This document shows, piece by piece, positions 3,468 to 31,076 of a DNA stretch of 33,138 bases (the stretch's first letter is position 1; each line of letters opens with the position of its first letter). The notes under the pieces are model-generated. The model searched no databases and was not told where the DNA came from. It saw only the letters and a program-made list of their open reading frames with translations. This stretch comes from an uncultured Candidatus Saccharibacteria bacterium (lineage in GTDB: Bacteria > Patescibacteriota > Minisyncoccia > JACPKW01 > UBA11713), in NCBI GenBank assembly GCA_964590055.1, contig CAZPXU010000001.1, positions 1-33,138 of the forward strand, given 5' to 3'. Both the position numbers and the translations under genes were made by a program.

Positions 3468-3472
3468 GCTTG

Positions 3473-14055: not shown

Positions 14056-14059
14056 ATCT

Positions 14060-15319
14060 TTATTTTAACTTACCCGAGAGGTTTTCCAAAGCTACGGCGT
14101 AAGCCGCGAGACGCAGGTTTGTTTTCAGTTCATTTTTCTTCGCCCAAATTTTCATGACCGCGCTTTTCATAAATTTCTCGATTTCACCGACCTCCTGCTC
14201 TTTCTCCGGCCTCTGGTTGTTTTTATTGGCTCTCCATTCCAGATAACTCCCCACCACTCCCCCGCCGTTCGCAAGGATGTCCGGAATTATTAAAATCCCG
14301 CGATTCTCCAAAATTTCATAGGCATCTCTGGCCACCCCGCCGTTGGCCATCTCCAAAATCACTTTCGCCCTGATCCGGCCGGCGTTGGCGGCGTTGACGG
14401 CGCCCTCAATCGCGGCCGGCACCAGGACATCGACTTCAAGTCCCAAAAGTTCTTCATTGGAAATTACACGGCAGCCCTCCTCGGCGGCAAGCCCCTCGAT
14501 GGGTTTAAAGTAACAAACGTTCCGGCTAAGCCGCCCCTGCTTCTCGCGGTCTTTGATTACCTTCCCAATCTCAAGACCGGAGGGAGCGTAAAGAGCGCCT
14601 TTCGAATCTGAAACGGCTACGACCCTAAAACCGTTTTCATCGAGAATTTCGGCCAAGTGCGAACCGACGTTTCCAAAACCCACTATCGCGGTGCCAAGCC
14701 CCGCCGGATCTCCGCCCAACAACTTTAAAATTTCGCGAAGCGCGACATATCCGCCCAAGCCCGTGGCGGCCTCGCGCGCGGGAGATCCGCCCGCCTGGAC
14801 GGGTTTTCCGGTAAAAGCGGCCGGCTCCTTTTTGCGGCAAAGTTTCTCATATTCATCGAGCATCCAGGCCATGACGGTGGTATTGGTGTTGACGTCCGGC
14901 GCCGGCACGTCTTTATCCGGGCCCAGAACTTCAAAAAAATAATCCACCCAGGCGCGCGACAGGCGCTCGATTTCGCCCGAGGAAAGCTCCTTGGGATTTA
15001 CGCGAACCGCTCCCTTGGCTCCCCCGAACGGCAGGCCCATGGCGGCGTTTTTAAAGGTCATTAAAAACGAAAGCGCCTTCACCTCCTCGAGAGAGCTTGC
15101 GGGGTGGTACCTAATGCCTCCCTTAAAGGGGCCCAAAGCATCCGAATACTGGACCCGCCAGGCCTTAAAAATTTCAACTCGGCCCGAATCGCGCTTGACG
15201 GGAAGGTTGGCCTCGATAATCCTTTGCGGCTCTTTAAGAATTTCCAAAATTTCCCGACGGGTCCCGGTGAGCCGCCCCGCTTCCTCCAAAAGTTTCACTT
15301 CGTCATCAAAGAAATTCAT
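14060..15319 (-). CDS. gdhA: glutamate dehydrogenase (Glu/Leu/Phe/Val dehydrogenase family)
   Basis: 419 aa. Motifs: GPFKGGIRYHP, PFGGAKGAV, and the NAD(P) site VGFGNVGS. Confidence 0.85.
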   Translation of the reverse strand: MNFFDDEVKLLEEAGRLTGTRREILEILKEPQRIIEANLPVKRDSGRVEIFKAWRVQYSDALGPFKGGIRYHPASSLEEVKALSFLMTFKNAAMGLPFGGAKGAVRVNPKELSSGEIERLSRAWVDYFFEVLGPDKDVPAPDVNTNTTVMAWMLDEYEKLCRKKEPAAFTGKPVQAGGSPAREAATGLGGYVALREILKLLGGDPAGLGTAIVGFGNVGSHLAEILDENGFRVVAVSDSKGALYAPSGLEIGKVIKDREKQGRLSRNVCYFKPIEGLAAEEGCRVISNEELLGLEVDVLVPAAIEGAVNAANAGRIRAKVILEMANGGVARDAYEILENRGILIIPDILANGGGVVGSYLEWRANKNNQRPEKEQEVGEIEKFMKSAVMKIWAKKNELKTNLRLAAYAVALENLSGKLK

Positions 15320-15422
15320 CCCGTTAGAAATCTACGGCTAATTATAGTTGTAACTAACATAGTAAATGAGTTTTAAGGTCGATAAAAAAATAATCTCATC
15401 GGCATAATATTTCTAACGGGAT
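15318..15422. repeat. perfect 14-bp inverted repeat flanking the trxB-gdhA spacer
   Basis: atcccgttagaaat at 15318-15331 is the exact reverse complement of atttctaacgggat at 15409-15422. The left arm covers the A and U of the gdhA AUG. Confidence 0.8.
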
Positions 15423-15433
15423 ATGCCGCTCTT

Positions 15434-16390
15434 TTAACCGTTGGGTTTTTCCGCGGCCGGGCTTTGGTGGTCCCTTTCTAAAATATAATTGTAAGCCGAG
15501 AGCGCGGCCCGCACGCCGTCCCCCGCCGAGATATTATTCTGCTTGTAGAGTTCGTCCGTAATGTCGCCGGCCGCGAAAATTCCGGGCCGCGAGGTTGCGG
15601 CGCGCCGATGGTCCAGCGCTATTTCTCCAAACTGGTTTATTTCCACCAAGCCCCTGGCAATCTCGGAATTCGGCACCGAGCCGATTTCCACGAAGATCCC
15701 CTCCAGCTTCAGTTCTTTCGTCTCGCCGCTCTTATTGTTCGCAAGCACGACTCCCTCGACGAATTTATCGCCTTTAATCTCCCTAACTTCGGTGTTAAAC
15801 ATAATCTCAACTTTATCCGAAGCCGTCACTTTCTCCTGAGTGATCTGATCGCCCCTCAAAGCATCGCCGCGCGAGACAAGATGGATTTTGGCGGCATACG
15901 GGAAAAGGTCCACTACCGCCTCCAGGGCCGCGTTCCCGCCGCCCACCACCGCAACCGCCTTGCCGCCGAACAGGGGCGCGTCGCAAGTGGAGCAATACGC
16001 CACTCCTTTTCCTTCAAGTTTATCCTCGCCGGGGACTTTAAGGCGGCGGCGTCTCGCTCCGGCGGTTACGATCAAGGCTTTGGCCTCAAGTTTTTCTCCG
16101 CCTTCCGTCGTCACGGAAAAGTTTTTTCCGCTTTCCTCTATTTTTGCGGCCTTCTCCGGCATTTTAACTTCAACCGTCTCCTGCGCCCGGACATGCTCCT
16201 CCATCTTTTGGGCGAGTTCAAAACCCGAAATGGATTTAGTCCCGATCCAATTCTGAATGTCGTCGGAGGTTATGGACTGCCCGCCGAAAGACTCGGTTAT
16301 CAAAAGAGTGTTCAGGCGCTTGCGGCCCGCGTAAACCGCCGCCGCCGCTCCGGCGGGGCCTCCGCCAATAATGATTAAATCGTATAACAT
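15434..16390 (-). CDS. trxB: thioredoxin-disulfide reductase-like flavoprotein
   Basis: Motifs: IIIGGGPAGAAAAVYA, the redox motif CSTCD, VVGGGNAALE, GIFAAGD. Length 318 aa. Confidence 0.8.
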   Translation of the reverse strand: MLYDLIIIGGGPAGAAAAVYAGRKRLNTLLITESFGGQSITSDDIQNWIGTKSISGFELAQKMEEHVRAQETVEVKMPEKAAKIEESGKNFSVTTEGGEKLEAKALIVTAGARRRRLKVPGEDKLEGKGVAYCSTCDAPLFGGKAVAVVGGGNAALEAVVDLFPYAAKIHLVSRGDALRGDQITQEKVTASDKVEIMFNTEVREIKGDKFVEGVVLANNKSGETKELKLEGIFVEIGSVPNSEIARGLVEINQFGEIALDHRRAATSRPGIFAAGDITDELYKQNNISAGDGVRAALSAYNYILERDHQSPAAEKPNG

Positions 16391-16407: not shown

Positions 16408-17784
16408 TTATGGAACCAGCTCTGGCCCCTTGTTCCGGTATTTCGTAATGAAGCCGGTGACGCGCCCGTTGTCCAGGGGACTTCCCTCCAGGTCAAATTT
16501 ATCCAAACGACCCCAGGCGGCAAGCGCGATATCGGCATCATTTTTGGAACGGGGCGTTAAAACCACTTTGGAAAAATCCCGCGCGATATCTTCCAGTTCT
16601 TTTGTTACTTCTGCCGGAATGCCGGGGCGGTAGGAAATCCAAACCTCGCCGTGCTCCAAATTATGCACCAGATATTCATCCGCCACCTCCTCCTTGTGAA
16701 TCCCGCGGGAGGTCGTCTCCGGCCAATGCGGCCCCGAAGTCGGGGGATTGGAATTGTAATTTCTGACTTCGGTCCCGATGCTGACGTGGTCTCTCGATAA
16801 AATTTCAACCGCCCGGCTCAAATCCGGACCGGAAAGGTCTTGTCGCCCTGCCAACAAATAATAACCGCCATACAAAACCGCAGCCAAAACGGCCAAGATT
16901 AAAACCCACTTCAAAATCTTTTTCATAACCAGGCGCTTTTGGGACGCCTCGAGCCCGCTTTTGCGCTCCTGCCTTCTAAGCTCGCGGCGCTCTTTTCTGA
17001 ATAAAACCTGAATGTTTTCTTCCATTAAAATATTTTCTCCCAAAAGATAGCGATAATCAATAATCCTCTCATAATTTATGAAATCAAAAAGACGATATCC
17101 CCATTGTATCATAAGCGAAAAACGATTCGTAAGAAGCAAAATCCCGAGGCCGATTAAAATTAAACCTCCAACCACTGAAAAAATCCAAAGATATTTTGAA
17201 AGTTTCTCAATGTACTCTTGGGCCGAGCCCCAAGCCCAGGCTACCGCCAAGAAAGGGACGGCGAGTCCCGCGGAAAAAACGGCCAAAAGTCCGGCGCCTT
17301 GAATTGCCGTGGTCGAGGTGGAAGCCAGAAGCAAAATTGAACCGAGCACGGGACCCACGCAAGGCGTCCAGCCGAAGGCAAAAGCCGAACCTAGAAGAAA
17401 AGAAGTAGTGGGTCTGCCCCGTTCCAAACCGAAAGGCAACTTAATTTGTCGCGCTCGCTCTAAAAACGGGAGGCGAATCACATTCAGCATCACGAGCCCG
17501 AAAAGGATAACGAAAACTCCGGCTATCTTGGTAAGTCCTAGACGATACGGCCCCAAATTTGCGCCTAAAAATCCAAAAGCGCTGCCAAATAGAATAAAAA
17601 CAAGAGAGAAACCCAAAACGTAAGCCCAACCGTTCAGAAAAACCTTCCGGCGCACCCCGGTTTTATCCTCCGAAGAGACTCCCGAAATAAATCCCAAATA
17701 GGCCGGCACCAGGGGAAAAGTGCAGGGGGCAAGAAAAGTCAAAAGCCCCGCAACAAAAGCCGGAATTATAAGCGAGTACTCCAT
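16408..17784 (-). CDS. CcdA/DsbD-type thiol-disulfide transporter fused to a DUF3105 domain
   Basis: Residues 1-~235 form six TM helices carrying APC(21)TFP and TPC(142)VGP. A K/R/E-rich linker and one more TM helix (KWVLILAVLAAVLYGGYYLL) follow. The DUF3105 motifs are PPTSGPHWP and VHNLEHGEVWISYRP. Confidence 0.8.
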   Translation of the reverse strand: MEYSLIIPAFVAGLLTFLAPCTFPLVPAYLGFISGVSSEDKTGVRRKVFLNGWAYVLGFSLVFILFGSAFGFLGANLGPYRLGLTKIAGVFVILFGLVMLNVIRLPFLERARQIKLPFGLERGRPTTSFLLGSAFAFGWTPCVGPVLGSILLLASTSTTAIQGAGLLAVFSAGLAVPFLAVAWAWGSAQEYIEKLSKYLWIFSVVGGLILIGLGILLLTNRFSLMIQWGYRLFDFINYERIIDYRYLLGENILMEENIQVLFRKERRELRRQERKSGLEASQKRLVMKKILKWVLILAVLAAVLYGGYYLLAGRQDLSGPDLSRAVEILSRDHVSIGTEVRNYNSNPPTSGPHWPETTSRGIHKEEVADEYLVHNLEHGEVWISYRPGIPAEVTKELEDIARDFSKVVLTPRSKNDADIALAAWGRLDKFDLEGSPLDNGRVTGFITKYRNKGPELVP

Positions 17785-18218
17785 GATTTCAAAGCGCTGC
17801 GCTGAACCTCTTCCAGATGCATAGAGGGTCGCTTTTCTTTAACAAATACCTCGGCTTTCTCCGGCGGCGCGCCTTTGGTTTTCATTAAATAGGCGGCAAC
17901 CAAAGTTGGAGCCCGGCCGTGCCCGTTCCGGCAGTGAACATAAATTTTCTTTTTCATCTGAACTAATTTTTCTAAAACTGCAACCCCAAATTCCAGCTGC
18001 TCCGGAGTCGGCGCGGCGTTATTTTTAACCGGAATCCAGACATAAAATTGAACCCCGAAAGGCGCATCAATCCTTTCTTCCTCCAAAGATAGGTCGGAAG
18101 AAATCCCCTCTTTCAAAAGCTTCTCGTCAAAATGCGTTTGGCAGCACTGATTGGTGCCGATATAAATGCCGTCCGCGATATAACTATATTCAAGCTCTTT
18201 AATGGAGTGCGGGGTCAT
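17766..18218 (-). CDS. dual-specificity/tyrosine protein phosphatase-like protein
   Basis: 150 aa, with the HCX5R P-loop VHCRNGHGRAPTLVAAYLM. Confidence 0.8.
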   Translation of the reverse strand: MTPHSIKELEYSYIADGIYIGTNQCCQTHFDEKLLKEGISSDLSLEEERIDAPFGVQFYVWIPVKNNAAPTPEQLEFGVAVLEKLVQMKKKIYVHCRNGHGRAPTLVAAYLMKTKGAPPEKAEVFVKEKRPSMHLEEVQRSALKSWSTRL

Positions 18219-19273: not shown

Positions 19274-19675
19274 TTAGATATACTCGAAGTGAATGAGACT
19301 GATAATGTCCTCGTAGCTGAACTCTTGGTTATAGATTAATCCCAAATGATATTTTATTAGTTCTCTCGACTGGCAATCTGGCGAAGCGAACTTTAATTCT
19401 GCTTTTCTTGTCCAACCCAGCTCTTTTACAACGATCTTCAAAATCCTAGCCCTGGCCTCAAACCCGTCAAAAATAGGAAGCAAATTCCACTTTTCCGCTC
19501 CGGGCTCTTGTAACACCCTTAATCTGACTTTCTGATGTTCCTTGAACCCCTTTGGATTCGGATACCTTCTGTCTCCGGGTTTTATGATAAGCTTCAGCCG
19601 CTTGTCCTTCAATAACGCTCGGTAAGGAAAGCGAAACCAGAGTTCATCAGCTAAATTCGACCTTTTTCCTTTCAT
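19274..19675 (-). CDS. hypothetical protein, possibly ASCH/PUA-like
   Basis: I chose the ATG at 19675; the track start at 19735 is a TTG that overlaps the SIS gene further. The ASCH resemblance is loose (..LKLIIKPGDRRY..., C-terminal ISLIHFEYI). Confidence 0.45.
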   Translation of the reverse strand: MKGKRSNLADELWFRFPYRALLKDKRLKLIIKPGDRRYPNPKGFKEHQKVRLRVLQEPGAEKWNLLPIFDGFEARARILKIVVKELGWTRKAELKFASPDCQSRELIKYHLGLIYNQEFSYEDIISLIHFEYI

Positions 19676-20312
19676 CTTGATTTCCTTTCTTTTTTGATTT
19701 TTTACCCAATGTTCCGCCGGGATGAATTTTGGCAAAATGTTTCAATTTAATCCCTTTAAGTTCTTGAAGCGCACTCGCCAGCGCATCTCCAATCGCAAGC
19801 GTAACCAAGGTAGAGGTAGTCGGCGCCAGATTAAAAGTGGTGCAGATTTTACAAGCCTCCTCGGCAACGCGGGTCAGCAAAACCACATCCGCCACCTTCG
19901 CCAGCGTGGAATTTTCAGTTCCGGCAATCAAAACTATTTTATTTTTAAAGTTCTTTCTAACGGCGGCGACGAAACTCACAACCTCGGGGGTCTCGCCGCT
20001 ATGGGAGATTAACACAATCGCGTCCTCTGTTTCAACCATTCCCAAATCCCCGTGCAACGCCTCCGTTGGATGCAAAAATAAGCTGAAGGTGCCGGTGGAG
20101 GAAAGGGTCGCCGCAATTTTTCGGGCCACAATCCCGGATTTTCCAAGGCCAGATAGTATTATTTTCCCTTTGCACTCACAGATCAGTCTAACCGCTTTTG
20201 CAAAGTTCGAATCCAGCTTCTCCGCGACGTGCTTTACCGCCGCAGCTTCATTCTCCAAAACTTCCCTTCCGATTCGTAAGATATCATTTTTTTTAAAACT
20301 ATTACTTTTCAT
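19647..20312 (-). CDS. SIS-domain sugar-phosphate isomerase, KpsF/GutQ-like but without CBS domains
   Basis: GKIILSGLGKSGIVARKIAATLSSTGTFSLFLHPTEALHGDLGMV...VLISHSGETPEV closely follows the KpsF SIS signature. The protein ends just after HPGGTLGKK, where KpsF would continue into its CBS pair. Confidence 0.8.
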   Translation of the reverse strand: MKSNSFKKNDILRIGREVLENEAAAVKHVAEKLDSNFAKAVRLICECKGKIILSGLGKSGIVARKIAATLSSTGTFSLFLHPTEALHGDLGMVETEDAIVLISHSGETPEVVSFVAAVRKNFKNKIVLIAGTENSTLAKVADVVLLTRVAEEACKICTTFNLAPTTSTLVTLAIGDALASALQELKGIKLKHFAKIHPGGTLGKKSKKKGNQDERKKVEFS

Positions 20313-20322: not shown

Positions 20323-21682
20323 CTATACCATGTAAGCGACGTCTGAAAAACTGGTGGGATAGGCCCAGGGAATTTCCCGAAGTTCGGAAGCGGGAAAACC
20401 TTTTCGGATGGCGAGAGCAAAAACATTGATTACTTCTTCGGCATGCGCCCCAAAAAGATGCGCTCCCAAAATTTTCCCGCTCCCCTCCTCTATCAGCACC
20501 TTATAACCGGTGGGCCGCAGGTTCAGTCGCCGCGAGGAGTACCATTCCGAGGTATCGGCGTGATTCACTCGAAACTTCAAACCCTGCTTCTGCGCGATCT
20601 CCTCGCTTAATCCGACTGCCGCCAGGGGCGGGAGAGTGAACACTACACTTGGTACTCCGAGGTAATTTAGGGTGGCGTGATTTTTGTCAAGAAGATTTTT
20701 CGCAGCCACCGCCCCTTCCAGGCCCGCCACCGGCGTCAAGGGAAAGCCGCCCGAGACCGCGGCATCGCCAGCCGCATAGACGCGCGGGTTGGTAACGCTC
20801 TGAAGATATTCATTTACCACCACTCCTTTTCGCTCCCTCTTGATATGCGCCCTCTCCAGTTCTAAATCGTCAATATCGGGAATCCGACCTGCGCCGTGGA
20901 CCACCAATTCGGCTTCAAACTTTTTGGTATGACCGTCCGAGGAGGCATAGACGTAAAAACCATTCGCGCCTTTTTCAATTCGTTCGACGGCGCTACTGAC
21001 TGCCAGGTTTATGCCGACTTCCCGGCTTGTTTCCGAAAGCATTCTTACCAGATCCGGATCAAATAATTCCAAGGGCCTGGGCCCGCGATGAAGAATCGTA
21101 ACCCCGGCGCCGGCCCGCGCCGCCACATGCGCGAATTCGAAGGAGATATAGCCGCCCCCCGACAAAAACAATTTGCCTGGGAAGCGCCGCAAGTTCTAAA
21201 AATTGGGTACTGGTGGCAAGATGTTCTTCCCCGGGAATACCCAGCGTTTGGGGCTTGGCGCCGGCGGCGATTAAAAAATAATCGGCGCTAAAAATTTTTT
21301 CTCCAACTTGAACGGCATCGTCATCAACAAATCTAGCCCGCCCCTTCAGAAGCTCGATGCCCGCCGCTTGGGCTGAACTACGGTAATGTTCCGAAACGGA
21401 GCCGGTAAAGCTCTTTTTGAAACGAATCAAGGCGGGCCAATCAATTTCGGTATTCCCCCGGATGATTTTTTTAGCTAAAAACCGCCTCTGCCAATCCATG
21501 AACTCTGCGCCTCCCACCAGAACTTTTTTAGGGTCGCAACCGCGTAGGGCGCAGGTTCCGCCGAAAGGATTAGAATCAATTATCAAAACCTCCCAGCCTC
21601 GCTTGCGGCAAGCGTAAGCGGCAGCGGACCCGGCGGCCCCGCTTCCTATTACGATTAGATTAAATTTATCATTAGACTTCAT
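20323..21682 (-). pseudogene. class-I pyridine nucleotide-disulfide oxidoreductase (glutathione-reductase-like), interrupted by a 1-nt frameshift
   Basis: ORFs 21059-21682 and 20323-21192 are the two halves of one ~452-aa protein. It carries GSGAAGSAAA (FAD) and GGTCALRGCDPKK (redox centre). The frame breaks inside IVFVGG|GYISFEFA at the C6 run 21155-21160. Deleting one base restores the frame. Confidence 0.8.
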
Positions 21683-21848
21683 TTAATTTTTCCGGCATTA
21701 TTCCCTGCTTGATAATTTCTAGGTTGCAGCTTTTCTTCTCGCGGCACCAATCTTCGCATTTTTGGGCAATCTCTTTGTCTTGGTACAAAAATCCGCAGGC
21801 TTCGCACTGGTAATGGGTTTTATTGTTCTCTTGAATAATTTTTACCAT
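21672..21848 (-). CDS. small Cys-rich (zinc-ribbon-like) protein, 58 aa
   Basis: MVKIIQENNKTHYQCEACGFLYQDKEIAQKCEDWCREKKSC... The ATG at 21848 lies 1 nt after the LUD stop. The 3' end overlaps the oxidoreductase start by 11 nt. Confidence 0.55.
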   Translation of the reverse strand: MVKIIQENNKTHYQCEACGFLYQDKEIAQKCEDWCREKKSCNLEIIKQGIMPEKLNEV

Positions 21849-21849
21849 A

Positions 21850-22470
21850 CTAAAATCCAAGTTTTTCCTTGACCAGGATAATAGTAATGCGGCCAGGTTG
21901 AAATTCTTTATTGATAATCAAAATTTTATTGACTCCGCTCCCCATGCCGTAAACCTTTCTGGCGCGCTCGTCTTCCAACGGCAAAGCATATTCATAAAGG
22001 CGCTTTAATCCTTCTGCAACGTTCTTTACAATTTTTTGGGCACCGACCACCCAAACCACTTTCGCTGCGCCGTAAGCATAAGCCGGGAGTTGGCTGCCGG
22101 TGGCGGAGGCCACCAGAACTTCCCCATCCTCGGTTACGGCATGCGCGCTCCCCACCGCCCATTCCGGCGCCGCTCCCAGGCGGCGCTTCTCGGCGCTTTG
22201 AGTTTTATCGTCCATCTGATTCAAAAGATTCCGCACGGATTTAAAATCCCCTCCTTTGTTTATTTCCGCGGGAACGCCGATGGCCTCCAAGGTCATTGAG
22301 GTCATATCCATGACCTCGGCGCCTTCGGGAATAATCTCAAAAAGCTTTGCCCTCGCCTCGGCCCCGTTCCCTGCCACCAAAGCCGTAATGCCGTTTTTCT
22401 CAAGCGCCGCTTTAGCTCTTGCGATTGAGGCGTCATCAGGAAGCTCTCCAAATTTGTCGTTTATTTCCAT
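21850..22470 (-). CDS. LUD-domain (DUF162, LutC/YkgG-like) protein
   Basis: 206 aa. The overall pattern (N-terminal ...ALEKNGITALVAGNGAEA..., central GSAHAVTEDGEVLVAS) resembles LUD-domain proteins. This is recognition by eye only. Confidence 0.65.
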   Translation of the reverse strand: MEINDKFGELPDDASIARAKAALEKNGITALVAGNGAEARAKLFEIIPEGAEVMDMTSMTLEAIGVPAEINKGGDFKSVRNLLNQMDDKTQSAEKRRLGAAPEWAVGSAHAVTEDGEVLVASATGSQLPAYAYGAAKVVWVVGAQKIVKNVAEGLKRLYEYALPLEDERARKVYGMGSGVNKILIINKEFQPGRITIILVKEKLGF

Positions 22471-22475
22471 ATTTT

Positions 22476-23000
22476 TTAATTGTTAGCCATTAAACTTGTA
22501 ATCCGGCCTTTAATTTCTTCCAAATCCATCGGGCCGCGCTTATGAAACGCGATATTTCCATCTTTGCTGACAAAAATCGTCTCCGGCATGGAAAAACCGC
22601 CGATGGACTGATAAAAAGAATCAGCCGGGTCAAGCAGAAAAACCAAATCATCCGTCACCCCCAAGTCATCCGTGAATTTTTTGGCCGTTGCCAACGGTTC
22701 GGCGCGGTCAATCGCGATTATAACAATTTTATCGCCGAATTCTTTTTGAGCCGTCGCAAAATCCTCCAGCTCCTTTACGCAAAAGGGGCACCAGGCCGCC
22801 CAAGCGTTTAGGACGAGGGGCTTTCCTTTAAAATCCGCCAGGCTTACGCTCTTGCCATTATAATCATTAAGCGAAAATTCCGGAGCTTTGCGAGAGTTGC
22901 CGGTTGAATTCATATTTTGGTGTTGACCCGTGTTGGAAATCAGCAACCACCCGACTATAACTAAAACCGCAATGCTGATAATAATTAAAGGTATTTTCAT
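22476..23000 (-). CDS. TM-anchored TlpA/ResA-like thioredoxin-fold thiol-disulfide oxidoreductase
   Basis: An N-terminal helix is followed by GKPLVLNAWAAWCPFCVKE. Confidence 0.85.
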   Translation of the reverse strand: MKIPLIIISIAVLVIVGWLLISNTGQHQNMNSTGNSRKAPEFSLNDYNGKSVSLADFKGKPLVLNAWAAWCPFCVKELEDFATAQKEFGDKIVIIAIDRAEPLATAKKFTDDLGVTDDLVFLLDPADSFYQSIGGFSMPETIFVSKDGNIAFHKRGPMDLEEIKGRITSLMANN

Positions 23001-23015
23001 ATTATAATTTTGGTA

Positions 23016-23408
23016 CTACGTTTGTAATTGCGGAGCCGGCGGCTTTTTAAAGAGATATTTATTGTAGATCACCGCTCCGATGATGAGTACGGCACCCGGT
23101 CCCCAAATCTGCCACGCGCCCCATGTGCTTAAAAATACGTATCGACCGACATAAAGAAGTGCCGCACCAAGAGAAAGAAGTGCTAACGGATAGGGGTTTC
23201 TATGAGATCTGTAGTCAAAGATAAAGCCGATTGCGCCAAGAGCAATCAACCCGAATGCAAACCAACGCCATGCCGGTATGAGAGCTCCCAAACCTAAATA
23301 TGTTAAAAGAGAAGCCGAACCAATCCAGCAAAGCGGGCAGACTCCAATTGCTCCCGCTCCCAAAATCGGCGTCAATCTTATTGATAACTTTTTGAAATTA
23401 TTTGTCAT
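23016..23408 (-). CDS. 4-TM membrane protein with an intramembrane CPLC motif (loosely MerC-like)
   Basis: GAGAIGVCPLCWIGSASLL lies in TM1. The loop DYRSHRNPYP sits between TM2 and TM3. Architecture and Cys placement recall MerC, but the assignment is weak. Confidence 0.6.
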   Translation of the reverse strand: MTNNFKKLSIRLTPILGAGAIGVCPLCWIGSASLLTYLGLGALIPAWRWFAFGLIALGAIGFIFDYRSHRNPYPLALLSLGAALLYVGRYVFLSTWGAWQIWGPGAVLIIGAVIYNKYLFKKPPAPQLQT

Positions 23409-23417
23409 CGCTCATGA

Positions 23418-24455
23418 TTATTTAAATAATTCTGTCTCCGGATGCGTCGCCGCCCAAGAAAACCAAAAGGCCGAAAAAGGGTTTATACGCTCTAATTTAC
23501 CATCTGGAAATTTTTTATACATACGGATAACGTCCAACTCTTTTTCATACCTAAGTAAAAAGGTCTCACCGGCAAAAGCGTCTTCCGCCTCTCCGGCTTT
23601 CTTCACCGCCTCCACGCTCCAGGCCTTTGCCTTTTCTCCGGACGCGAGCCCGAAAACGAAGGCGTTGGGCGCGAGGCGCCGGTCGGAAAAATTCGTTAAG
23701 TCCAAAGAAAAGCCGGTAACGGCGTAGTAATCGCCGTAAGGGTTATAGCCGTAAGACCTCATAGTGCCGGTCTCCTGGGACAGGACTTCGCCGTCGGGAT
23801 GCGAGCGTTTCCATTCCCCGAAGCGCAGCTGGTCGGAGGGCAGAAGTTTCAATTTTGTCCCCGTCATTTCGCCGACCACCGCCTCCCCCAAAATCTGCGG
23901 CCACAGAGATTCGGTTTTGCGGTCGTACATTACGAGATTGGATTTCCATAAACTTCCCGAAGTTCCGAACTCAACCCGCTCCCCCTTCACCAAAGGGTCA
24001 AAGACAAAACCCGTAAGGCACAAGGGACAATAGGTCACCAAAACGCGCTCGCCGGAGACAACATCGTTCACAATCTCATGCCAAACTAAAATCCGGTAGG
24101 GGTAAAAGCGATGGGCAGAGCCGCGAGAAAACGCGACCCCGGGATTATCGTCCGGCAACCATTTCTTCGCCTCCGTGACGGACACAAACTTGGGGCGGTC
24201 AATGGACGGTATCCCGTCTTTGCCCGGCCCGCCGGAGATAATTTCATTAAGCGGAACGCTATGTTTTACGCCATCGGTAACCATGATTTTCTTTTCAACA
24301 ATTTCACCATCTTTATCATTTTCAACAACTCCAACACTCTCGACTTTAGTCTCGCCGCCTTGCGGCAATTTAAAATCTTCCCTGAAAAATCTCGACCAGA
24401 TGAAAACGCCTCCCGCAACCAGAATTAAAATTACCAAAACCCAATTCGCTTTCAT
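23418..24455 (-). CDS. DUF3179-domain secreted or anchored protein
   Basis: An N-terminal helix is followed by DGIPSIDRPKF...YPYRILVWHEIVND...VLVTYCPLCLTG, which is characteristic of DUF3179. Confidence 0.8.
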   Translation of the reverse strand: MKANWVLVILILVAGGVFIWSRFFREDFKLPQGGETKVESVGVVENDKDGEIVEKKIMVTDGVKHSVPLNEIISGGPGKDGIPSIDRPKFVSVTEAKKWLPDDNPGVAFSRGSAHRFYPYRILVWHEIVNDVVSGERVLVTYCPLCLTGFVFDPLVKGERVEFGTSGSLWKSNLVMYDRKTESLWPQILGEAVVGEMTGTKLKLLPSDQLRFGEWKRSHPDGEVLSQETGTMRSYGYNPYGDYYAVTGFSLDLTNFSDRRLAPNAFVFGLASGEKAKAWSVEAVKKAGEAEDAFAGETFLLRYEKELDVIRMYKKFPDGKLERINPFSAFWFSWAATHPETELFK

Positions 24456-24688
24456 TTGATTTTCAAAAGCTCCCGCAATTTTTCCTCATCAAAACCAATC
24501 ACAATCCCGCCGTCGATTTCCGTAACCGGAACGCCCATCTGCCCGGATTTTTGAATCATTTCCCGGGCATTATCCTGATTTCCGGCAACATCTTTCTCCT
24601 CATAAACTACCGCGTTCTTTTTGAAAAACTCCTTGGTGGCGCGGCACCAGACGCAAGTGGGAGTGGAATAGATGGTTACTTTTGGCAT
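24452..24688 (-). CDS. glutaredoxin-like (NrdH/YruB-type) small redoxin
   Basis: 78 aa, VTIYSTPTCVWCRATKEFF...GVPVTEIDG. Its stop forms a 4-nt overlap with the DUF3179 start. Confidence 0.85.
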   Translation of the reverse strand: MPKVTIYSTPTCVWCRATKEFFKKNAVVYEEKDVAGNQDNAREMIQKSGQMGVPVTEIDGGIVIGFDEEKLRELLKIK

Positions 24689-24689
24689 G

Positions 24690-25004
24690 TTAAATTCTTA
24701 AAACTCTAATAATGGCTCCAACCGCGGGATCGCTTTTTTTCACTTCATAACAAATCATCTGGCCGTGGCGTTCCCTCCGGACAAGCCCGGCCCGCTCCAG
24801 AACGCGAAGTTGCTGGGAAGCGGCCGGCACCGAGATCCCCAGCACGCGGGCGATATCGGTCACGCAGGCTTCCGACTCCGAGAGCAGTATTTTAAAAATA
24901 CGAAAGCGCCCGGGGTCTGAAAGCGCCGCAAAAAAAACCGACAGCCGTTCCTCGCCTGGCTCCAGCACCTTCTTCAATTTTATGATTTTCGTCTTTGGAA
25001 ACAT
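24690..25004 (-). CDS. ArsR/SmtB-family winged-helix transcriptional regulator
   Basis: Motifs: FFAALSDPGRFRIFKILL..EACVTDIARVLGISVPAASQQLRVLERAGLVRRERHGQ. The ATG at 25004 is preferred to the TTG at 25022. Confidence 0.85.
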   Translation of the reverse strand: MFPKTKIIKLKKVLEPGEERLSVFFAALSDPGRFRIFKILLSESEACVTDIARVLGISVPAASQQLRVLERAGLVRRERHGQMICYEVKKSDPAVGAIIRVLRI

Positions 25005-25029
25005 TATTAAGTGTTTAAGCAATTATTTA

Positions 25030-25058
25030 ATAATAAAAACATAATAAAAAGCCGTCAA
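25030..25058 (-). promoter_or_regulatory. candidate sigma70-type promoter for the arsR operon
   Basis: On the minus strand: TTGACG (25058-25053), a 17-nt spacer, then TATTAT (25035-25030), about 25 nt upstream of the arsR ATG. Pattern match only. Confidence 0.35.
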
Positions 25059-25101
25059 GCGCGGCTGGGGATAAGTCGGATTAGGACTTACTGCTCTTGG
25101 T

Positions 25102-25281
25102 CTATTCTTCGTCTTCTTCCGGCATCAAAACCCGGACTTCTTTCTTGCACTCGCACCATTGGCAGCGCCCATCCTTGTATTTCTTGCCGTGCTGATGTTT
25201 GCACTTTGCGCAGGAAACTATCGGACAGCCGCAGGGGCAGACTTTTAAATGGTGGTGCCCGCATTCTTCGCAGTGGGGCAT
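25102..25281 (-). CDS. 59-aa Cys/His-rich, metallothionein-like small protein
   Basis: One codon below the track cutoff. My base-by-base translation is MPHCEECGHHHLKVCPCGCPIVSCAKCKHQHGKKYKDGRCQWCECKKEVRVLMPEEDEE*, with 10 Cys and 6 His. It is co-oriented with all neighbours and starts 14 nt after the DsbA-like stop. The 90-aa plus-strand ORF in the track is antisense to it. Confidence 0.5.
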   Translation of the reverse strand: MPHCEECGHHHLKVCPCGCPIVSCAKCKHQHGKKYKDGRCQWCECKKEVRVLMPEEDEE

Positions 25282-25295
25282 GAAATTATTTTTAC

Positions 25296-26018
25296 TTAAT
25301 CAAGGCCGAGAGTTGCCGCGAAACTTTTAAGATTCCGGTCCGAAAACGCGCCAACGTTCTCGCCGCTTATGTTTTTGGAGTAATAGTTGTCCCAGATGTA
25401 ATTAAAAAGGTAATCATGGTACTCCCAGAATTTCCCCTGCTCCCCGGCGCACCTGGCCGCCTCGGCCGCGCGCGCTGATTCCTCGCCCAAAAAAGCGAAA
25501 TCGCGCCAGACAAACGCGGTTTTCCCGGATTTCAAATACGTTTCTTTCAGCTGCTGTTCGGTGGTCTTAAAAAATTTCCCGCAAAACGGGCACTGGAAAT
25601 CCCCGTATTCGATAATCGCGACTTTGGCCGCGGGAGACCCCAAAACAAAATCATCTTCGCGGATTTTCAAAGCATCCGGCAAGGAGGAATTCTGCGACGC
25701 CAGCTCCGCTTCAATCGGCTCCTGAAAAGACGAAAACGGCACCGCGCCGGAAACCATCCGGCCATTTACGAAAGTGGCCGGCGTGCCGTTAACGCCCAAA
25801 GTTTTTCCCTCTTCCGTCGCGGCTTCAACGGCTTTCCTGTGCTTGCCCGAATCCAGACAGGAAGCAAAAACGGGAGGAAACGAGGCATCGTCTCCGGAAC
25901 CGGAGGGCGCAGAAGAAAGTTTCAGCCCCGGCCTGGCATAAACCACCGCCGCGGCTATCAGAACCCCAGCAACGATGATGCTGGCAGGTACAAGATAGGG
26001 ATTTCGTCCTTGGTCCAT
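25296..26018 (-). CDS. TM-anchored DsbA-family (Thioredoxin_4-like) protein with permuted segment order
   Basis: The CPFC segment (AKVAIIEYGDFQCPFCGKF...GKFWEYHDYLF...FAATLGLD) lies C-terminal. The segment that normally ends the domain (FASCLDSGKHRKAV....LGVNGTPATFVNG) lies N-terminal, right after the TM helix. Confidence 0.85.
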   Translation of the reverse strand: MDQGRNPYLVPASIIVAGVLIAAAVVYARPGLKLSSAPSGSGDDASFPPVFASCLDSGKHRKAVEAATEEGKTLGVNGTPATFVNGRMVSGAVPFSSFQEPIEAELASQNSSLPDALKIREDDFVLGSPAAKVAIIEYGDFQCPFCGKFFKTTEQQLKETYLKSGKTAFVWRDFAFLGEESARAAEAARCAGEQGKFWEYHDYLFNYIWDNYYSKNISGENVGAFSDRNLKSFAATLGLD

Positions 26019-28669
26019 GGATTAAACAGAGGATTAAACACCTCGATAAAATCGGGATTTTGAATGTTGACCGTGAGATTCAGGGCGGTGGTTCTGACGG
26101 TTCCTCCGGAGGAGCCCTGGATGGTTATGACGTAGGTTCCGGGGGTGGTACTGCCCGGTATGGTAACACGGTAGCTGGAGCCAGTCGAATACTCGTTCGA
26201 ACAGGAAGGCGGGTTTTGACAGGAAAGAGTCGGGTCCGAAAAGAGATGCTGGGTTCCGGAAGGAAGGGGCGGAGAGACCGAGAGGAGGGAGAGGGCGACA
26301 GGAGAGGAGAAGTTGTTGAAGGGAGTGACGCGGACGGTGGAGAGGGTGGAAGTGGCGGAAGCGGAGCCGACGATGGTGGCGGCGATGTTGCCGGAGTTGG
26401 TGAGAGAGTAGTCCGGGGGCGGGACGCACTGGCTCGAACTCTGGCAGGCCGAGACGCCGCAGGACGGGATGGAAACGCAGGAAGTGCCGCTGCATTCGTT
26501 GTGGGGGGTGCTCTGGCCTACGGGGCAGTCGTTCTCGTCGTTATCCGAGACCGAGGAGCAGCCGGGATCGGTGGCAGCCGAACCCACAAGCAGGGAGTCG
26601 GCGTGGTCAATCTTGCCGTCGCCGTCGTTATCAATGCCGTCGGTGCACTGGCTGTTTCCGCCCCCTCCGCCTCCACCGCCGCCTCCTCCGCCTCCGGTGC
26701 AGTAGTTATTGTTCAAACAAGTACTGGCTCCGCAGGCGTCCACGGAAACACAAGAACCCGACTGGCAGGTGACGTAAGGTTTTGTCTGGCCCACCGGGCA
26801 GAGAGGGTTTACGGTGATAGTGACATAGGAAGGGCCAGCCGTTCCTCCGGGACCCTGGCAGGTTACGGAGTAAGTGGTCGTGGAGGGCGGGGTTACCGGC
26901 TTGGAGCCGGAGGTGGCACCCCCGGTGTCAAAGTTGCCGCCGGTGCAGCTCGTGGCGTTCTGGGAGGTCCAGGAAAGAGTGGAGGACTGGCCTTGGATAA
27001 TGGTGGTCGGGTTTCCGGTGAAAGTGAGGGTGGGCGAGGAGGCCGCTCCGACATTCACCGTGACGCTGTCGGAAGATGGATTTCCTCCGCCTGTGCATGA
27101 AAGAGTGTAAGTTTGCGAAGAAGTCAGATTGCCAGTGGATATGCCTGTGTTAAAAGTTCCTGTCCAACCGGTTGGAGAAACCGAGCAGCTAGCCGCATTC
27201 TGCGAAGTCCAGCTGTCGGTGGCGGCGGTGTTGTACGCGATGGTAATCGGGCCGTCCGAGCTATTGGCTTTGATGTCCGCAGCCGTGGGGGCCGCGCCCA
27301 CGTTTACGGTGACGCTGTCGGAGGCGGAACCGGAAGCATTGGCGCAGGTAATGATATAAGTCTTGTTTTGAGTCAGGTTCCCGGTGGACTCGGAGCCGGA
27401 GGTAGCTTTGGCTCCAGACCAGGAGCCGGAAGCGCTGCAGTTTTCGGCATTGGTTGAGGACCAGGAAAGAGTGGCTGCGGCATTGTGGGCGATGCTGACC
27501 GGGCCGTCCGAGCTATTGGCTTTGATGTCTGCCGTGGGAGGAGGAACGACATCTATGTTCCAAGATAGAGTGGCGGCGTTAATTGTGCCTGGAGTGTAAA
27601 AGTTGGTGACGTTGACCTTGTCTGTTCCATAAGAAGTTATATGGTTATCTCCTGTGCACAGGTTAGTGCAGTTGAATGCCTGTCCTTCGTCAAACTCACA
27701 AAGTCTGTTGCAACCCCCTTCTTCTCCTTGATCACATTGTACGGTTTGAGTCTGCCCTTCAGAGTTTTCAAATTCTTTAGCGTTGCACGCTGGCCCACCA
27801 GGATTATGATCTGAAGGTTCATAACTGGGAATCGCCGATTCAAGTGCGCTAGTCCCGAATTGCCAAGAAATCTCCCGGCCACGAACAGGATAATATGCCT
27901 GTGTTGAGCCAATATTTGTAGAGATTTCCGCCTGCGGGCCGCTGGTTGTAATTGTACAAGTAGTCGTGTATTTTCTGATACCCTCCGACGTATCACTTTC
28001 GGAAAGAGTGCCGCAATTCATCCCAGAGGCGCTTAAACTAACAGACGGCTTTTTAATCGAGGTCTGTAAACAATTTGCCCGATTTTGAGCGGTATCATAT
28101 AAATGCTGGGGAGGGCAATAATTTGCCGGAACCGGTGTCGTTCCTTGGTATTGAAAGACGCTGTATGGCGCATTTTTATATTCGTATACTTGGAATTGTC
28201 CTGTATAAGAAACGCATCCGTTTTCCGGTCCGCAGAGGGTCGTGGCCGGAAAAGCGCCTCTATATGTCCATGAAGGCGGAGCGAGCTTTGAAATAAAATC
28301 GTCCCCTACCCAAGGGGCTGGTGGCGAATCAACCCAGCTGCCGGTCATCAAATAAGAACTTTCCGCGATAAGCTCAAAAGTTACTTTGTCTCCAGGCTTA
28401 AGCTTGGTATCTGATTTAATAAGCGTTCCGGAATCTTTTTCGCGCACCTCTCCGGTGTAATTTACTTTAACAATCGCGGCGATATTGTGAGTATCCGGCT
28501 GGCCTAAATTATAATAATAAACAGCATCTCTTTGGGCACTCTGCTGCCCCAAAGTCGTCGCCGCAACAGCGGAATCCGGGAGGCGCGCTTCAAAAGAGCC
28601 CGCGACCAAAAGCGCGCCGATTAAAAACAGGGTTACTAGCAATGCGTGATGATGTTCTTTGAATGTCAT
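25958..28669 (-). CDS. 903-aa N-terminally anchored, Cys-rich modular surface protein
   Basis: N-terminal helix LLVTLFLIGALLVAG, three tandem ~83-aa Ig-like repeats, two CPVGQ...SCVS..CG..C modules flanking a Gly13 tract, and a DGIDNDGDGKIDHAD Ca-binding-like motif. The 3' end overlaps the DsbA-like start by 61 nt. Confidence 0.8.
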   Translation of the reverse strand: MTFKEHHHALLVTLFLIGALLVAGSFEARLPDSAVAATTLGQQSAQRDAVYYYNLGQPDTHNIAAIVKVNYTGEVREKDSGTLIKSDTKLKPGDKVTFELIAESSYLMTGSWVDSPPAPWVGDDFISKLAPPSWTYRGAFPATTLCGPENGCVSYTGQFQVYEYKNAPYSVFQYQGTTPVPANYCPPQHLYDTAQNRANCLQTSIKKPSVSLSASGMNCGTLSESDTSEGIRKYTTTCTITTSGPQAEISTNIGSTQAYYPVRGREISWQFGTSALESAIPSYEPSDHNPGGPACNAKEFENSEGQTQTVQCDQGEEGGCNRLCEFDEGQAFNCTNLCTGDNHITSYGTDKVNVTNFYTPGTINAATLSWNIDVVPPPTADIKANSSDGPVSIAHNAAATLSWSSTNAENCSASGSWSGAKATSGSESTGNLTQNKTYIITCANASGSASDSVTVNVGAAPTAADIKANSSDGPITIAYNTAATDSWTSQNAASCSVSPTGWTGTFNTGISTGNLTSSQTYTLSCTGGGNPSSDSVTVNVGAASSPTLTFTGNPTTIIQGQSSTLSWTSQNATSCTGGNFDTGGATSGSKPVTPPSTTTYSVTCQGPGGTAGPSYVTITVNPLCPVGQTKPYVTCQSGSCVSVDACGASTCLNNNYCTGGGGGGGGGGGGGNSQCTDGIDNDGDGKIDHADSLLVGSAATDPGCSSVSDNDENDCPVGQSTPHNECSGTSCVSIPSCGVSACQSSSQCVPPPDYSLTNSGNIAATIVGSASATSTLSTVRVTPFNNFSSPVALSLLSVSPPLPSGTQHLFSDPTLSCQNPPSCSNEYSTGSSYRVTIPGSTTPGTYVITIQGSSGGTVRTTALNLTVNIQNPDFIEVFNPLFNPWTKDEIPILYLPASSLLGF
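26807..27538 (-). repeat. three tandem ~250-nt coding repeats (Ig-like domains) inside the 903-aa gene
   Basis: The repeats span aa 378-460, 461-542 and 543-621 (ADIKANSSDGP.(S/T)IA...LSW.S.NA..C....TY...C....G...DSVTVNVGAA). A 30-nt identical block, cgggccgtccgagctattggctttgatgtc, occurs at 27248-27277 and 27500-27529, a period of 252 nt. Confidence 0.8.
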
Positions 28670-29984: not shown

Positions 29985-30812
29985 TTAAAAGTATTTCTTT
30001 TGTAGAATTGATTTTATCTTACCAACAATCTCGCCCGGGGTAAAGTGGGCTTTTACCATGAAATCTTCGGCCCCCACGGATAAGGCCCGCTCCATGTCCT
30101 CTTTCTGGCCGAGGTTGGAAAGCACTATCACCGGAATGGAAGAAGTCGCGCCGTCCGATTTCAACCGGCGCAAAATTTCAAATCCGTCCAGGCCCGGCAA
30201 AATCAAATCCAGCAGGATCACATCGGGATGCTCGTCGGCGGCAAGCTTCACGCCCGACTCGCCATCCACCGCTTCCAGCGTTTTAAATCCTTCGCGCCCC
30301 AACTTCTGAACTATCAAGTCGCGCAGGAATTTATCGTCTTCTATGATCAAAACGTTCATTTTATTCCCGGTCCCCTGAACTCCCCCGCTGTCTTGGGAGA
30401 CCTTTTTGCTCCCGCCGGCGGCTTTCGTTTCCCGCCGAAGCGCACCCGGAGTATCCGCCAAAACCTTGCGAACTTTTTCGAGCACATCCGAGGGATTGAA
30501 TTCGGCTTTAACCAGATAATCCTTCGCCCCCAGTTCCAAGGCCTTGTCCACCTCCACCGGCTGGCCGGAGTTGGAAACCACTATGATCGGTACGGCGATT
30601 TTCTCGTCCCGGACGCGCTTTAAAATTTCGAAACCGTCGAGCTTCGGCAAAATTATGTCCAACAGCACCAGATCCGGCTTTTCTTTTTTTATCATCTTGA
30701 AACCCTCCTCTCCGTCCACCGCCGACAGCACTTCGTAGTCCTCGTGTTCCAGCTTGGCTTTCATCACCCCCAGGTGCACCGGCTCGTCTTCAATTATTAG
30801 AATTTTTACCAA
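29985..30812 (-). CDS. response regulator with two tandem receiver (REC) domains and no output domain
   Basis: REC1: KILIIEDEP...PDLVLLDIILPKLDGFE...VVSN. REC2: NVLIIEDDK...PDVILLDLILPGLDGFE...VLSN. The two are joined by a ~30-aa linker. TTG start. Confidence 0.85.
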   Translation of the reverse strand: MVKILIIEDEPVHLGVMKAKLEHEDYEVLSAVDGEEGFKMIKKEKPDLVLLDIILPKLDGFEILKRVRDEKIAVPIIVVSNSGQPVEVDKALELGAKDYLVKAEFNPSDVLEKVRKVLADTPGALRRETKAAGGSKKVSQDSGGVQGTGNKMNVLIIEDDKFLRDLIVQKLGREGFKTLEAVDGESGVKLAADEHPDVILLDLILPGLDGFEILRRLKSDGATSSIPVIVLSNLGQKEDMERALSVGAEDFMVKAHFTPGEIVGKIKSILQKKYF

Positions 30813-30976
30813 TTTTATTTTATACCAACGCCGGTGAGTTAATCCGCCCGCCTTGACTTCGACGCTTTGATAAAGTTATTTTCTTCCCCAAAATAGCAGT
30901 CAAGGCGAAGTCGGGCGCGGTAAAATCGAGCGCCCCGCCCTCCGTGCTCCTGAAAAATTATTCGATGCATATTTTT

Positions 30977-31005
30977 ATATTAACGCGTTCTCAACGGTTA
31001 GGCAA
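30977..31005 (-). promoter_or_regulatory. candidate promoter for the REC-REC gene
   Basis: On the minus strand: TTGCCT (31005-31000), a 17-nt spacer, then TAATAT (30982-30977). It would give a ~155-nt leader. Pattern match only. Confidence 0.25.
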
Positions 31006-31034
31006 ATCTGCTGGTCTAGGGGGCGGGCAGAGGC

Positions 31035-31070: not shown

Positions 31071-31076
31071 TTCGCT

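Follow-up and report, generated by a model that had tools for sequence, protein, structure and literature searches.

What is the function of a block of ten cysteine-rich genes in an uncultured Candidatus Saccharibacteria bacterium, one belonging to the candidate phyla radiation (CPR)? The block lies at 20323-26018 in a 33,138-nt stretch of contig CAZPXU010000001.1 (assembly GCA_964590055.1), and this whole stretch is called the window below. An earlier, sequence-only reading had described the block as an ArsR-regulated and previously undescribed system for handling thiols or soft metals outside the cytoplasm, and had held that it was not a mercury resistance (mer) operon. We concluded that the block is a mer-type gene cluster of a CPR bacterium joined to a conserved thiol-reducing envelope gene set. 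CPR bacteria are a major component of groundwater communities, and little is known of their envelope and redox biology. The chief points of interest here are a relay formed by DUF3179, TlpA and CcdA, and a family of mercuric reductases (MerA) in CPR bacteria that lack the usual C-terminal Cys-Cys (CC) pair.

Genes were mapped from the list of open reading frames (ORFs) of the window, and domains were called by Pfam and NCBIfam profile searches. All ten genes were found on the minus strand, with junctions that ranged from an 11-nt overlap to a 79-nt gap. The earlier domain calls were confirmed, together with the Cys motifs of the block (CPFC twice, CVWC, CPLC twice, CALRGC) and of the downstream thioredoxin reductase TrxB (CSTC). 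The thiol-rich, CxxC-bearing and soft-metal character that had been attributed to the block's proteins was supported. TrxB and a CcdA-DUF3105 fusion do follow downstream on the same strand (15434-16390 and 16408-17784). The features are listed below (aa, amino acids; TM, transmembrane).

25296-26018, minus: DsbA-like protein, TM-anchored, CPFC motif, circularly permuted (Pfam Thioredoxin_4 and DSBA)
25102-25281, minus: 59-aa peptide with 10 Cys and 6 His (ORF list; rare conserved family)
25058-25030, minus: TTGACG-N17-TATTAT, a promoter of sigma-70-like type upstream of arsR that agrees with the consensus at 10 of 12 positions
25003-25047, no strand: operator-like inverted repeats I1 and I2, between the -10 box and the arsR ATG
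24690-25022, minus: ORF of the ArsR/SmtB repressor, likelier ATG at 25004, giving 104 aa (HTH_5, NF033788)
24452-24688, minus: cytoplasmic glutaredoxin-like (Grx-like) protein, CVWC, YruB/NrdH-like (PF00462)
23418-24455, minus: DUF3179 protein, TM-anchored, extracytoplasmic, CPLC (PF11376, E = 1e-84)
23016-23408, minus: MerC-family 4-TM transporter, CPLC in TM1 (PF03203, 27.6 bits)
22476-23000, minus: TlpA/ResA-like thioredoxin, TM-anchored, CPFC (Redoxin and AhpC-TSA domains, ResA subfamily model)
21850-22470, minus: LUD-domain protein (PF02589)
21672-21860, minus: ORF (62 aa) of a small DUF7128 Cys protein, 58 aa from the ATG at 21848 (PF23447)
20323-21682, minus: GbsMerA-type flavoprotein, frameshifted (Pyr_redox_2; PDB 8K40 match)
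21155-21160, minus: G6 homopolymer with an extra base, which splits the reductase ORF
17766-18218, minus: DSP/PTP-like CX5R protein, overlapping the start of ccdA (PF00782)
16408-17784, minus: CcdA (DsbD_TM)-DUF3105 fusion (PF02683 and PF11303)
14060-16390, minus: TrxB (15434-16390, CSTC; NCBIfam TRX_reduct, AhpF) and glutamate dehydrogenase (GDH)

The reductase and the MerC-family transporter

We began with the flavoprotein, which had been read as one class-I disulfide reductase gene. It proved to be two overlapping ORFs in different frames (21059-21682 and 20323-21192), separated by an extra G in the run of six at 21155-21160. Deleting one G from this run yielded a 452-aa protein with no stop codon in the repaired frame, and this protein was collinear with intact homologs of about 450 aa at 60–65% identity over the full length. 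The additional G is either an assembly error or a real inactivation. An exact-pattern scan found no metagenome contigs spanning the site, and no further split genes were seen in the window; an overlap between Fpg and Rpe (4946-5033) was considered as a second frameshift and rejected as an artefact of start-codon choice.

The best solved relative of the repaired reductase was GbsMerA of Gelidibacter salicanalis (PDB 8K40; 402 bits, E = 1.7e-119), which outscored any glutathione reductase by 200 bits. GbsMerA has neither an NmerA domain nor the C-terminal Cys pair, yet it reduces Hg(II), and it loses activity upon the Y437F substitution; it is encoded in an ArsR-MerT/P-MerA operon and falls into one group with E. 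coli RclA, and it also reduces Ag and Mn, more slowly (PMC10587081). The window reductase keeps residues C44, C49, D50, Y178, Y441 and S446, which correspond to C41, C46, Asp47, Tyr174, Tyr437 and Ser442 of GbsMerA. The first five were invariant in 21 family members, and S446 was at least 90% conserved. Glutathione reductase and dihydrolipoamide dehydrogenase were rejected as identities for this flavoprotein, given that their His-Glu pair is replaced by Tyr-Ser and that GbsMerA is the best structural relative.

Membership in the canonical MerA family was examined using the signature residues of Barkay and Boyd (PMC8261052). The redox-active Cys pair (C207/C212 in B. cereus RC607 numbering) is present as C44 and C49 within GGTCALRGC. 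At position 605, where Tyr (in bacteria) or Phe (in archaea) replaces the catalytic His, the window protein has Tyr441 in the motif AYPT; the aligned residue of GbsMerA is Tyr437, the counterpart of Tyr441 in the Tn501 core. The Tyr264 site is Val in GbsMerA, and offset arithmetic places Tyr100 there in the window protein, in a column that is not conserved in the family. The vicinal C-terminal pair C628/C629 is absent: the protein ends in WAYPTSFSDVAYMV, and its Cys residues are confined to positions 25, 44 and 49. Against the canonical MerA proteins of CPR bacteria described below, the window reductase scored just 120–205 bits, and no canonical MerA was found anywhere in the window. By its sequence, the window reductase is a member of the CC-less GbsMerA-type family of mercuric reductases, and Hg(II) reduction is predicted. 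Because it belongs to this family, the missing CC pair does not exclude a mercuric reductase.

Neighboring genes of this reductase family pointed to mercury as well. In an NC10 genome, a reductase of this family follows ArsR-MerB-MerT-HMA. Among 80 metagenome loci of the family, a single-sequence search recognized mer-type neighbors in 28. The Pfam families seen most often in immediate neighbors were MerB (7 upstream, 7 downstream), zf_CopZ (7), a second flavoprotein with a CC tail (6), MerT (5 and 2), HMA (5 and 3) and MerR (2); canonical MerA is among these neighbors. The absence of the CC pair had been the main argument against a mer identity. That argument fails because CC-less GbsMerA reduces Hg(II) and because the family is embedded in mer operons elsewhere.

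The zf_CopZ neighbors form a Cys-rich family of about 165 aa (MSxCC...CYCFGF...CACEVKNPxGxCCLG) that precedes the GbsMerA-type reductase in 7 soil-metagenome loci. Loci with such a protein upstream of the reductase include those that we labeled L067, L088, L094, L097, L105, L111, L117 and L145. The protein may be a metallochaperone partner of the enzyme.

The second mer-type component is the 4-TM protein. Its match to the Pfam MerC profile is borderline (27.6 bits, exactly at the gathering cutoff of 27.6, E = 4.8e-6). All 20 tested orthologs matched Pfam MerC at E <= 0.001, and the CPLC motif (C24, C27) was invariant among them. Homologs at 70–87% identity number in the hundreds across many CPR phyla, and NCBI names several of them "MerC domain-containing protein". 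When the protein was aligned with Tn21 MerC (query checked as 100% identical to annotated merC), CAAC of Tn21 MerC fell on CPLC and SHR fell on SHR (hhalign E = 0.008, 28% identity, 86 columns). A tblastn search for the MerC-like protein against plasmids gave no match. An Uhrbacteria MerC (P0065) bears a Cys/His-rich C-terminal tail.

We then scanned for MerC orthologs using one genome per species, which gave 56 loci, nearly all from CPR bacteria; window proteins were mapped onto the six-frame ORFs of these loci, and the C-termini of flavoproteins were inspected. A canonical MerA was encoded within 6 kb of the MerC ortholog on the same strand in 22 of the 56 loci, with a spacing of 16–160 nt in 13 of them, and an ArsR gene usually precedes a MerC ortholog that adjoins canonical MerA. 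These MerA proteins carry GGTCVNVGCVP, FPTLSE and a CC tail (...LSCC[IV]). They are the CPR MerA whose kinship with archaeal MerA was reported in 2021 by Christakis, Barkay and Boyd (PMC8261052). On this basis the 4-TM CPLC protein is assigned to the MerC family; its profile score is borderline, and the strength of the assignment lies in the gene context. The earlier statement that the block is not mer is therefore contradicted, since orthologs of its transporter stand directly beside canonical MerA in CPR loci.

ArsR-type regulators head simple mer operons of the GbsMerA kind (PMC10587081). The Gelidibacter salicanalis ArsR-MerT/P-GbsMerA operon (PDB 8K40/8K41; PMC10587081) resembles the window in having an ArsR-family regulator first, a Cys-pair membrane Hg transporter upstream of the reductase, and a reductase of about 450 aa with CALRGCD, in which Tyr substitutes for the catalytic His and both NmerA and the CC pair are missing. 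It differs in that its transporter is a MerT/P fusion whereas that of the window is of MerC type. In addition, genes for the Grx-like protein, DUF3179, MerC, the TlpA-like thioredoxin, LUD and DUF7128 lie between regulator and reductase in the window, where the reductase is frameshifted. Tn21 merRTPCADE shares with the window the logic of regulator, transporter and NADPH-dependent flavoprotein, and also the MerC family. Unlike canonical mer operons, the window has no MerR-family regulator, MerP, MerT, MerD or MerE; its reductase lacks C628/C629, and an extracytoplasmic thioredoxin relay is added. CPR relatives of the window locus have, right beside the same MerC, a canonical MerA whose residue 605 is Phe and which ends in a CC tail (the type of PMC8261052).

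The proposed envelope relay and its regulator

The remaining genes of the block belong to a module whose order is conserved across many CPR phyla, as a check proposed with the sequence-only reading established. The order ArsR, Grx-like, (TlpA), DUF3179, TlpA, (DUF7128), (DSP), CcdA, with optional members in parentheses, recurs in Sungbacteria, Gottesmanbacteria, Taylorbacteria, Liptonbacteria, Azambacteria, Wildermuthbacteria and others. Because this order recurs across phyla, the window's DSP and CcdA genes (16408-18218) belong with the block. TrxB and GDH, or glucose-6-phosphate and 6-phosphogluconate dehydrogenases (G6PD/6PGD), are often found inside or beside the module, and the TrxB and GDH genes are both inside it in L006, L008, L011 and L013.

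Two relatives combine mer-type genes with the module. L061 (Parcubacteria Gr01-1014_38) reads ArsR-MerC-GDH-reductase-DUF3179-TlpA-CcdA, with a reductase of the window type. L148, from a complete Sungiibacteriota genome, reads DsbA-ArsR-Grx-DUF3179-Cys/His peptide-TlpA-CcdA-TlpA-MerC-MerA(CC)-TlpA-Grx-SIS-AroE and matches the window layout down to the trailing SIS and AroE-like genes. Genes of mer and of the relay module are also mixed in L058, L052, L032 and L009; the TlpA-like gene directly adjoins MerC in 11 of the 56 loci, and in L149 a heavy-metal P-type ATPase adjoins the module. Cys/His-rich peptides or tails recur (the 59-aa peptide of the window, a 58-aa peptide of L148, the P0065 MerC tail). 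The L148 peptide (8061-8237) has the sequence CMACSCPCD twice and lies within the cluster.

Individual members of the module were then considered. The Grx-like protein scored 86.9 against TIGR02196, just under the cutoff of 88.55; its gene follows ArsR in the module loci and adjoins TrxB in four loci. In Clostridium pasteurianum, the Cp34/Cp9 pair likewise sets a Grx-like CxxC protein beside a low-Mr thioredoxin-reductase homolog, with a peroxiredoxin as acceptor. The four loci with adjacent Grx and TrxB genes resemble this arrangement, whereas the likely acceptor in the window is CcdA. The CPLC motif of DUF3179 was invariant in 30 homologs, and some DUF3179 members are selenoproteins with a UxxC/T motif. 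An AlphaFold model of the protein was of middling confidence (pLDDT 68.9); Foldseek found no PDB match to it at E <= 0.001, and faint, partial Rieske-like hits were disregarded. The TlpA-like protein has a weak SCO1-SenC match, and CcdA follows TlpA in the conserved module.

Five Cys residues of DUF7128 were conserved in 14 relatives. In L028 and L029 its gene stands between those of ArsR and MerC, and in L034 it is directly upstream of MerC; in L019 (about 2864, minus strand), a long membrane protein bearing a CPVC motif has DUF7128 as a fused domain. This fusion, the P0065 MerC tail and the L148 peptide connect small Cys proteins with CxxC transporters of the membrane. LUD is an infrequent companion, near MerC in just three loci (L022, L028, L040).

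In 11 of the 56 loci the MerC strand has a DSP gene upstream of CcdA, and L001, L061 and L149 have one too. The protein has a DSP/PTP fold with HCxxGxxR, and it recurs just upstream of CcdA in L001, L006, L008, L012, L013, L061 and L149. Known CcdA pathways offer no obvious role for a cytoplasmic CX5R protein that is coupled to CcdA. A true ars system was rejected for the block, which is without ArsB, Acr3 and ArsC; the DSP-like CX5R protein matches no arsenate-reductase family.

The window contains a complete CcdA-pathway set, consisting of a DsbD_TM protein, a TM-anchored CxxC thioredoxin and cytoplasmic TrxB. In this it resembles the CcdA-ResA/TlpA pathways and the CcdA-Etrx1/2-MsrAB2 system of S. 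pneumoniae (PMC3914529), which combine DsbD_TM/CcdA, a TM-anchored CxxC thioredoxin and a cytoplasmic TrxB or redoxin donor. It differs from them in having no apocytochrome machinery or Msr partner: none of the known CcdA clients (cytochrome c maturation ResBC/Ccm, MsrAB) was found among the 33 window ORFs scanned. It differs also in its conserved downstream partner, DUF3179, and in its placement under ArsR and interleaved with MerC. In the literature searched, DUF3179 appeared just in lists of selenoproteins and DUF7128 not at all, and nothing linked CcdA or TlpA to mer operons. Likewise, no description of the DUF3179/TlpA/CcdA/Grx set was found there. The earlier claim of an undescribed system thus stands for this set and falls for the block as a whole, which is mer-related.

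The regulator at the head of the module is an ArsR-family protein (PF01022, HTH_5, 54 bits; NF033788, 80.8 against a cutoff of 55). Orthologs of the window type, which we call type 1, share two invariant Cys residues, which lie in the alpha3 motif CVTD and in the wing motif GQM[IV]CYE. Its nearest solved relatives are SmtB and CadC. The alpha3 Cys aligns with C61 of SmtB and C58 of CadC, and the wing Cys has no counterpart in solved relatives. No sensory site of known type (alpha3/alpha3N CxC, alpha5 His/Asp, BigR-type Cys pair) was found in the window ArsR.

The promoter-like element reported above arsR (TTGACG-N17-TATTAT, 25058-25030) is present and is conserved together with a dyad. In the window and seven loci with a window-type ArsR, TTGAC was invariant and the -10 box was aligned. 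The dyad TTAAgTAaTT-n4-AAtTACTTAA was conserved in all eight aligned sequences, and on the minus strand of the window the operator core reads TTAAATAATT-GCTT-AAACACTTAA (25030-25007). The conserved promoter and dyad suggest ArsR autoregulation, with the dyad as predicted operator.

A second ArsR subtype is encoded immediately before MerC-MerA. It has three conserved Cys (N-terminal xCA, and KIC[YW]LLC) and a different operator, and it seems to be a dedicated Hg sensor, separate from the window ArsR. Its operator, CATTTGAATA-n-TATTCAAATG, is conserved. Loci with this subtype are L015, L022, L023, L028, L029, L031, L032, L036-L038, L040, L045, L049, L052, L054 and L060.

Metal defense weighed against other roles

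We lean, with moderate confidence, toward a thiophilic-metal (mercury-type) defense cluster in which MerC uptake and NADPH-dependent reduction are coupled to an extracytoplasmic dithiol relay. As to metal specificity, the direction of thiol or metal transfer, and the signal read by ArsR, the scheme is what we infer. The two-Cys ArsR, heading a CPR-wide operon, would bind the dyad that overlaps its own promoter. The MerC-family transporter would use its intramembrane CPLC pair to bring Hg(II) through the membrane. Reduction of Hg(II) to Hg(0) with NADPH would fall to the GbsMerA-type flavoprotein, which has the Cys44/Cys49 redox pair, Asp50 and, where His is usual, Tyr441, and which lacks a C-terminal Cys pair. 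DUF7128 and the Grx-like protein would probably hand the metal over, replacing the absent NmerA domain and CC tail.

The relay would run from NAD(P)H through TrxB, the Grx-like protein and CcdA to the TM-anchored TlpA-like thioredoxin and the extracytoplasmic DUF3179, and would keep outward-facing CxxC thiols reduced for binding metal or passing it on. TrxB and GDH are the likely supply of reductase and NAD(P)H, and CcdA would be the membrane electron conduit. The electron chain had been proposed to start from the class-I flavoprotein; it probably starts from TrxB and the Grx-like protein instead. Because DUF3179 is TM-anchored, has an invariant CPLC and occurs in selenoprotein (UxxC/T) forms, we infer that it is a client of the relay and a metal-capturing partner of MerC.

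A bolder version of this proposal is tentative. DUF3179 would be a new part of extracytoplasmic metal defense, trapping Hg(II) or a different soft metal on the outside and handing it on to MerC; it would be kept reduced by CcdA-TlpA and controlled by the two-Cys ArsR. The module would then be a CPR-wide 'reductive capture' branch of mer that replaces MerP/MerT, and DUF7128 and the DSP-like CX5R protein would be further parts of it.

Several observations weigh against mercury defense. The reading frame of the reductase is broken in the window; the enzyme fails the canonical MerA signature through its lack of C628/C629, and the GbsMerA-type family is known from one biochemical study. The MerC profile match is only at threshold, and the hhalign probability is low. 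The ArsR next to MerC-MerA is of the three-Cys subtype, whereas that of the window has two Cys. Many MerC-anchored loci have the module without MerA, and two of the three DUF3179-anchored loci (L149, L150) have it without MerC or MerA. Because the module occurs without mer genes, it need not be dedicated to mercury. Lastly, the role of DUF3179 is a guess because its model is mediocre (pLDDT 69) and no solved fold matched.

The main alternative is a general operon for extracytoplasmic thiol homeostasis or oxidative stress, like CcdA-Etrx-MsrAB2, to which MerC and the reductase are optional add-ons. ArsR would then be a dithiol/disulfide sensor, and TrxB/Grx-CcdA-TlpA-DUF3179 would maintain or repair surface Cys proteins in a cell without glutathione. 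We regard this as possible, although doubtful. It would account for L149, L150 and the many other loci that have the module without any mer gene, and for the regular linkage to NADPH-generating genes (GDH, G6PD/6PGD, pentose-phosphate). The two conserved Cys of the window ArsR, unlike any known metal site in position, fit it too, as does an Acidobacteria-type contig that places the reductase family close to Redoxin-CMD-CcdA-Trx and without a mer gene, and a characterized analogue exists (PMC3914529). It leaves unexplained a MerC ortholog embedded in the module and directly beside TlpA in 11 loci, and a reductase that has Tyr, like MerA, where disulfide reductases need His (PMC10587081). Cys/His-rich peptides and DUF7128 point to metal binding, and neither the block nor the scanned window ORFs include an Msr, a peroxiredoxin substrate or a cytochrome-c maturation gene.

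It is improbable that the mer part is a decaying remnant, in which the reductase is a true pseudogene and the block serves as a thiol relay alone or not at all. A single-base frameshift does split the reductase, the neighboring DsbA is rearranged, and the window holds no canonical MerA. Apart from the frameshift, the two halves of the reductase are intact and conserved (60–65% identity over the full length, no stop after repair), no other split gene was seen in the window, and surplus bases in homopolymers are common errors of assembly.

Least probable is a copper/silver cluster, with the flavoprotein as an RclA-like Cu(II) reductase, the TlpA-like protein delivering copper and the Cys/His peptides buffering Cu(I): the RclA grouping and the lower-rate reduction of Ag and Mn by GbsMerA (PMC10587081), the weak SCO1-SenC match of TlpA, the zf_CopZ proteins that precede the reductase family in 7 metagenome loci and the P-type heavy-metal ATPase of L149 agree with it, but the block has no CopA, CopZ, CusF or multicopper oxidase, RclA retains the His-Glu pair where the window enzyme has Tyr-Ser, the neighbors of the reductase family are mostly the mercury-specific MerB and MerT, and MerC orthologs pair with canonical MerA.

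If the mercury-type reading is true, many CPR lineages carry a mercury or soft-metal defense wired to an extracytoplasmic thiol-reducing relay, and DUF3179, DUF7128 and the two-Cys ArsR subtype gain their first testable functions. CC-less GbsMerA-type reductases would also be widespread across mer contexts. Such enzymes are rejected by standard screens for the merA signature, and therefore surveys of mercury-cycling potential may undercount them. For annotation, the block should be filed as mer-related and the reductase flagged as frameshifted.

Neighboring genes

The DsbA-like protein and the 59-aa peptide had been counted as members of the block, and they look instead like a separate unit. 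A spacer with a hairpin and a promoter separates their genes from arsR. In L147, a related peptide (5001-5180) follows a DsbA gene, downstream of a homolog of a large secreted protein and upstream of a DUF3105 protein. Because of this spacer, and because DsbA and the peptide travel in L147 with the homolog of the 903-aa protein (below) and with DUF3105, the two genes are probably a unit of their own tied to the upstream secreted protein. The peptide had 2 relatives among 1.84 billion representatives, in which all 10 Cys were conserved (CxxC-x7-CxCxC-x4-CxxC-x12-CxxCxC), and it is probably a metal-binding protein.

The DsbA-like protein matches Thioredoxin_4 and DSBA in two stretches of swapped order. 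In six homologs from other loci the order is the normal one, and the N-terminal anchor is homologous. Its parts run from the TM anchor to the C-terminal third (with the cis-Pro GTP loop) and then to the N-terminal CxxC part. The protein ends in ...AATLGLD, exactly where the moved segment starts (...KTLGVNGTP). This is the pattern expected of a tandem duplication followed by truncation, judging from the sequence.

Upstream of dsbA lies a gene for a 903-aa protein (25958-28669, minus strand) that is Cys-rich, repeat-containing and probably secreted; it contains 13 consecutive Gly, and no Pfam family matched it. The end of this gene overlaps the start of dsbA by 61 nt, and its local G+C content (0.61) and GC skew differ from the rest of the window. 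In L147, a homolog of the C-terminal part of the protein, at 49% identity, is encoded upstream of DsbA.

Genes of the non-oxidative pentose-phosphate pathway (a split transketolase, Rpe, RpiB) and those for GAPDH and GDH flank the cluster (1029-7904 and 13084-15319, minus strand), and relatives have G6PD/6PGD or GDH inside the cluster. The presence of pentose-phosphate and GDH genes at the cluster suggests a selected link to NADPH supply.

Directly downstream of the reductase, a 221-aa KpsF/GutQ-like protein (19647-20312, minus strand) matches just the SIS part of its family (model positions 1-155 of 268), and the CBS pair seems to be missing. Its end is overlapped by an ORF of 153 aa (19274-19735) with no family match, whose homolog in L060 shares a reading frame with an AroE-like protein. 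An Rfam search detected no RNA families in the window. At 29985-32849 (minus strand), a two-receiver response regulator without an output domain stands beside a Cache-domain histidine kinase, and this pair is unconnected to the cluster.

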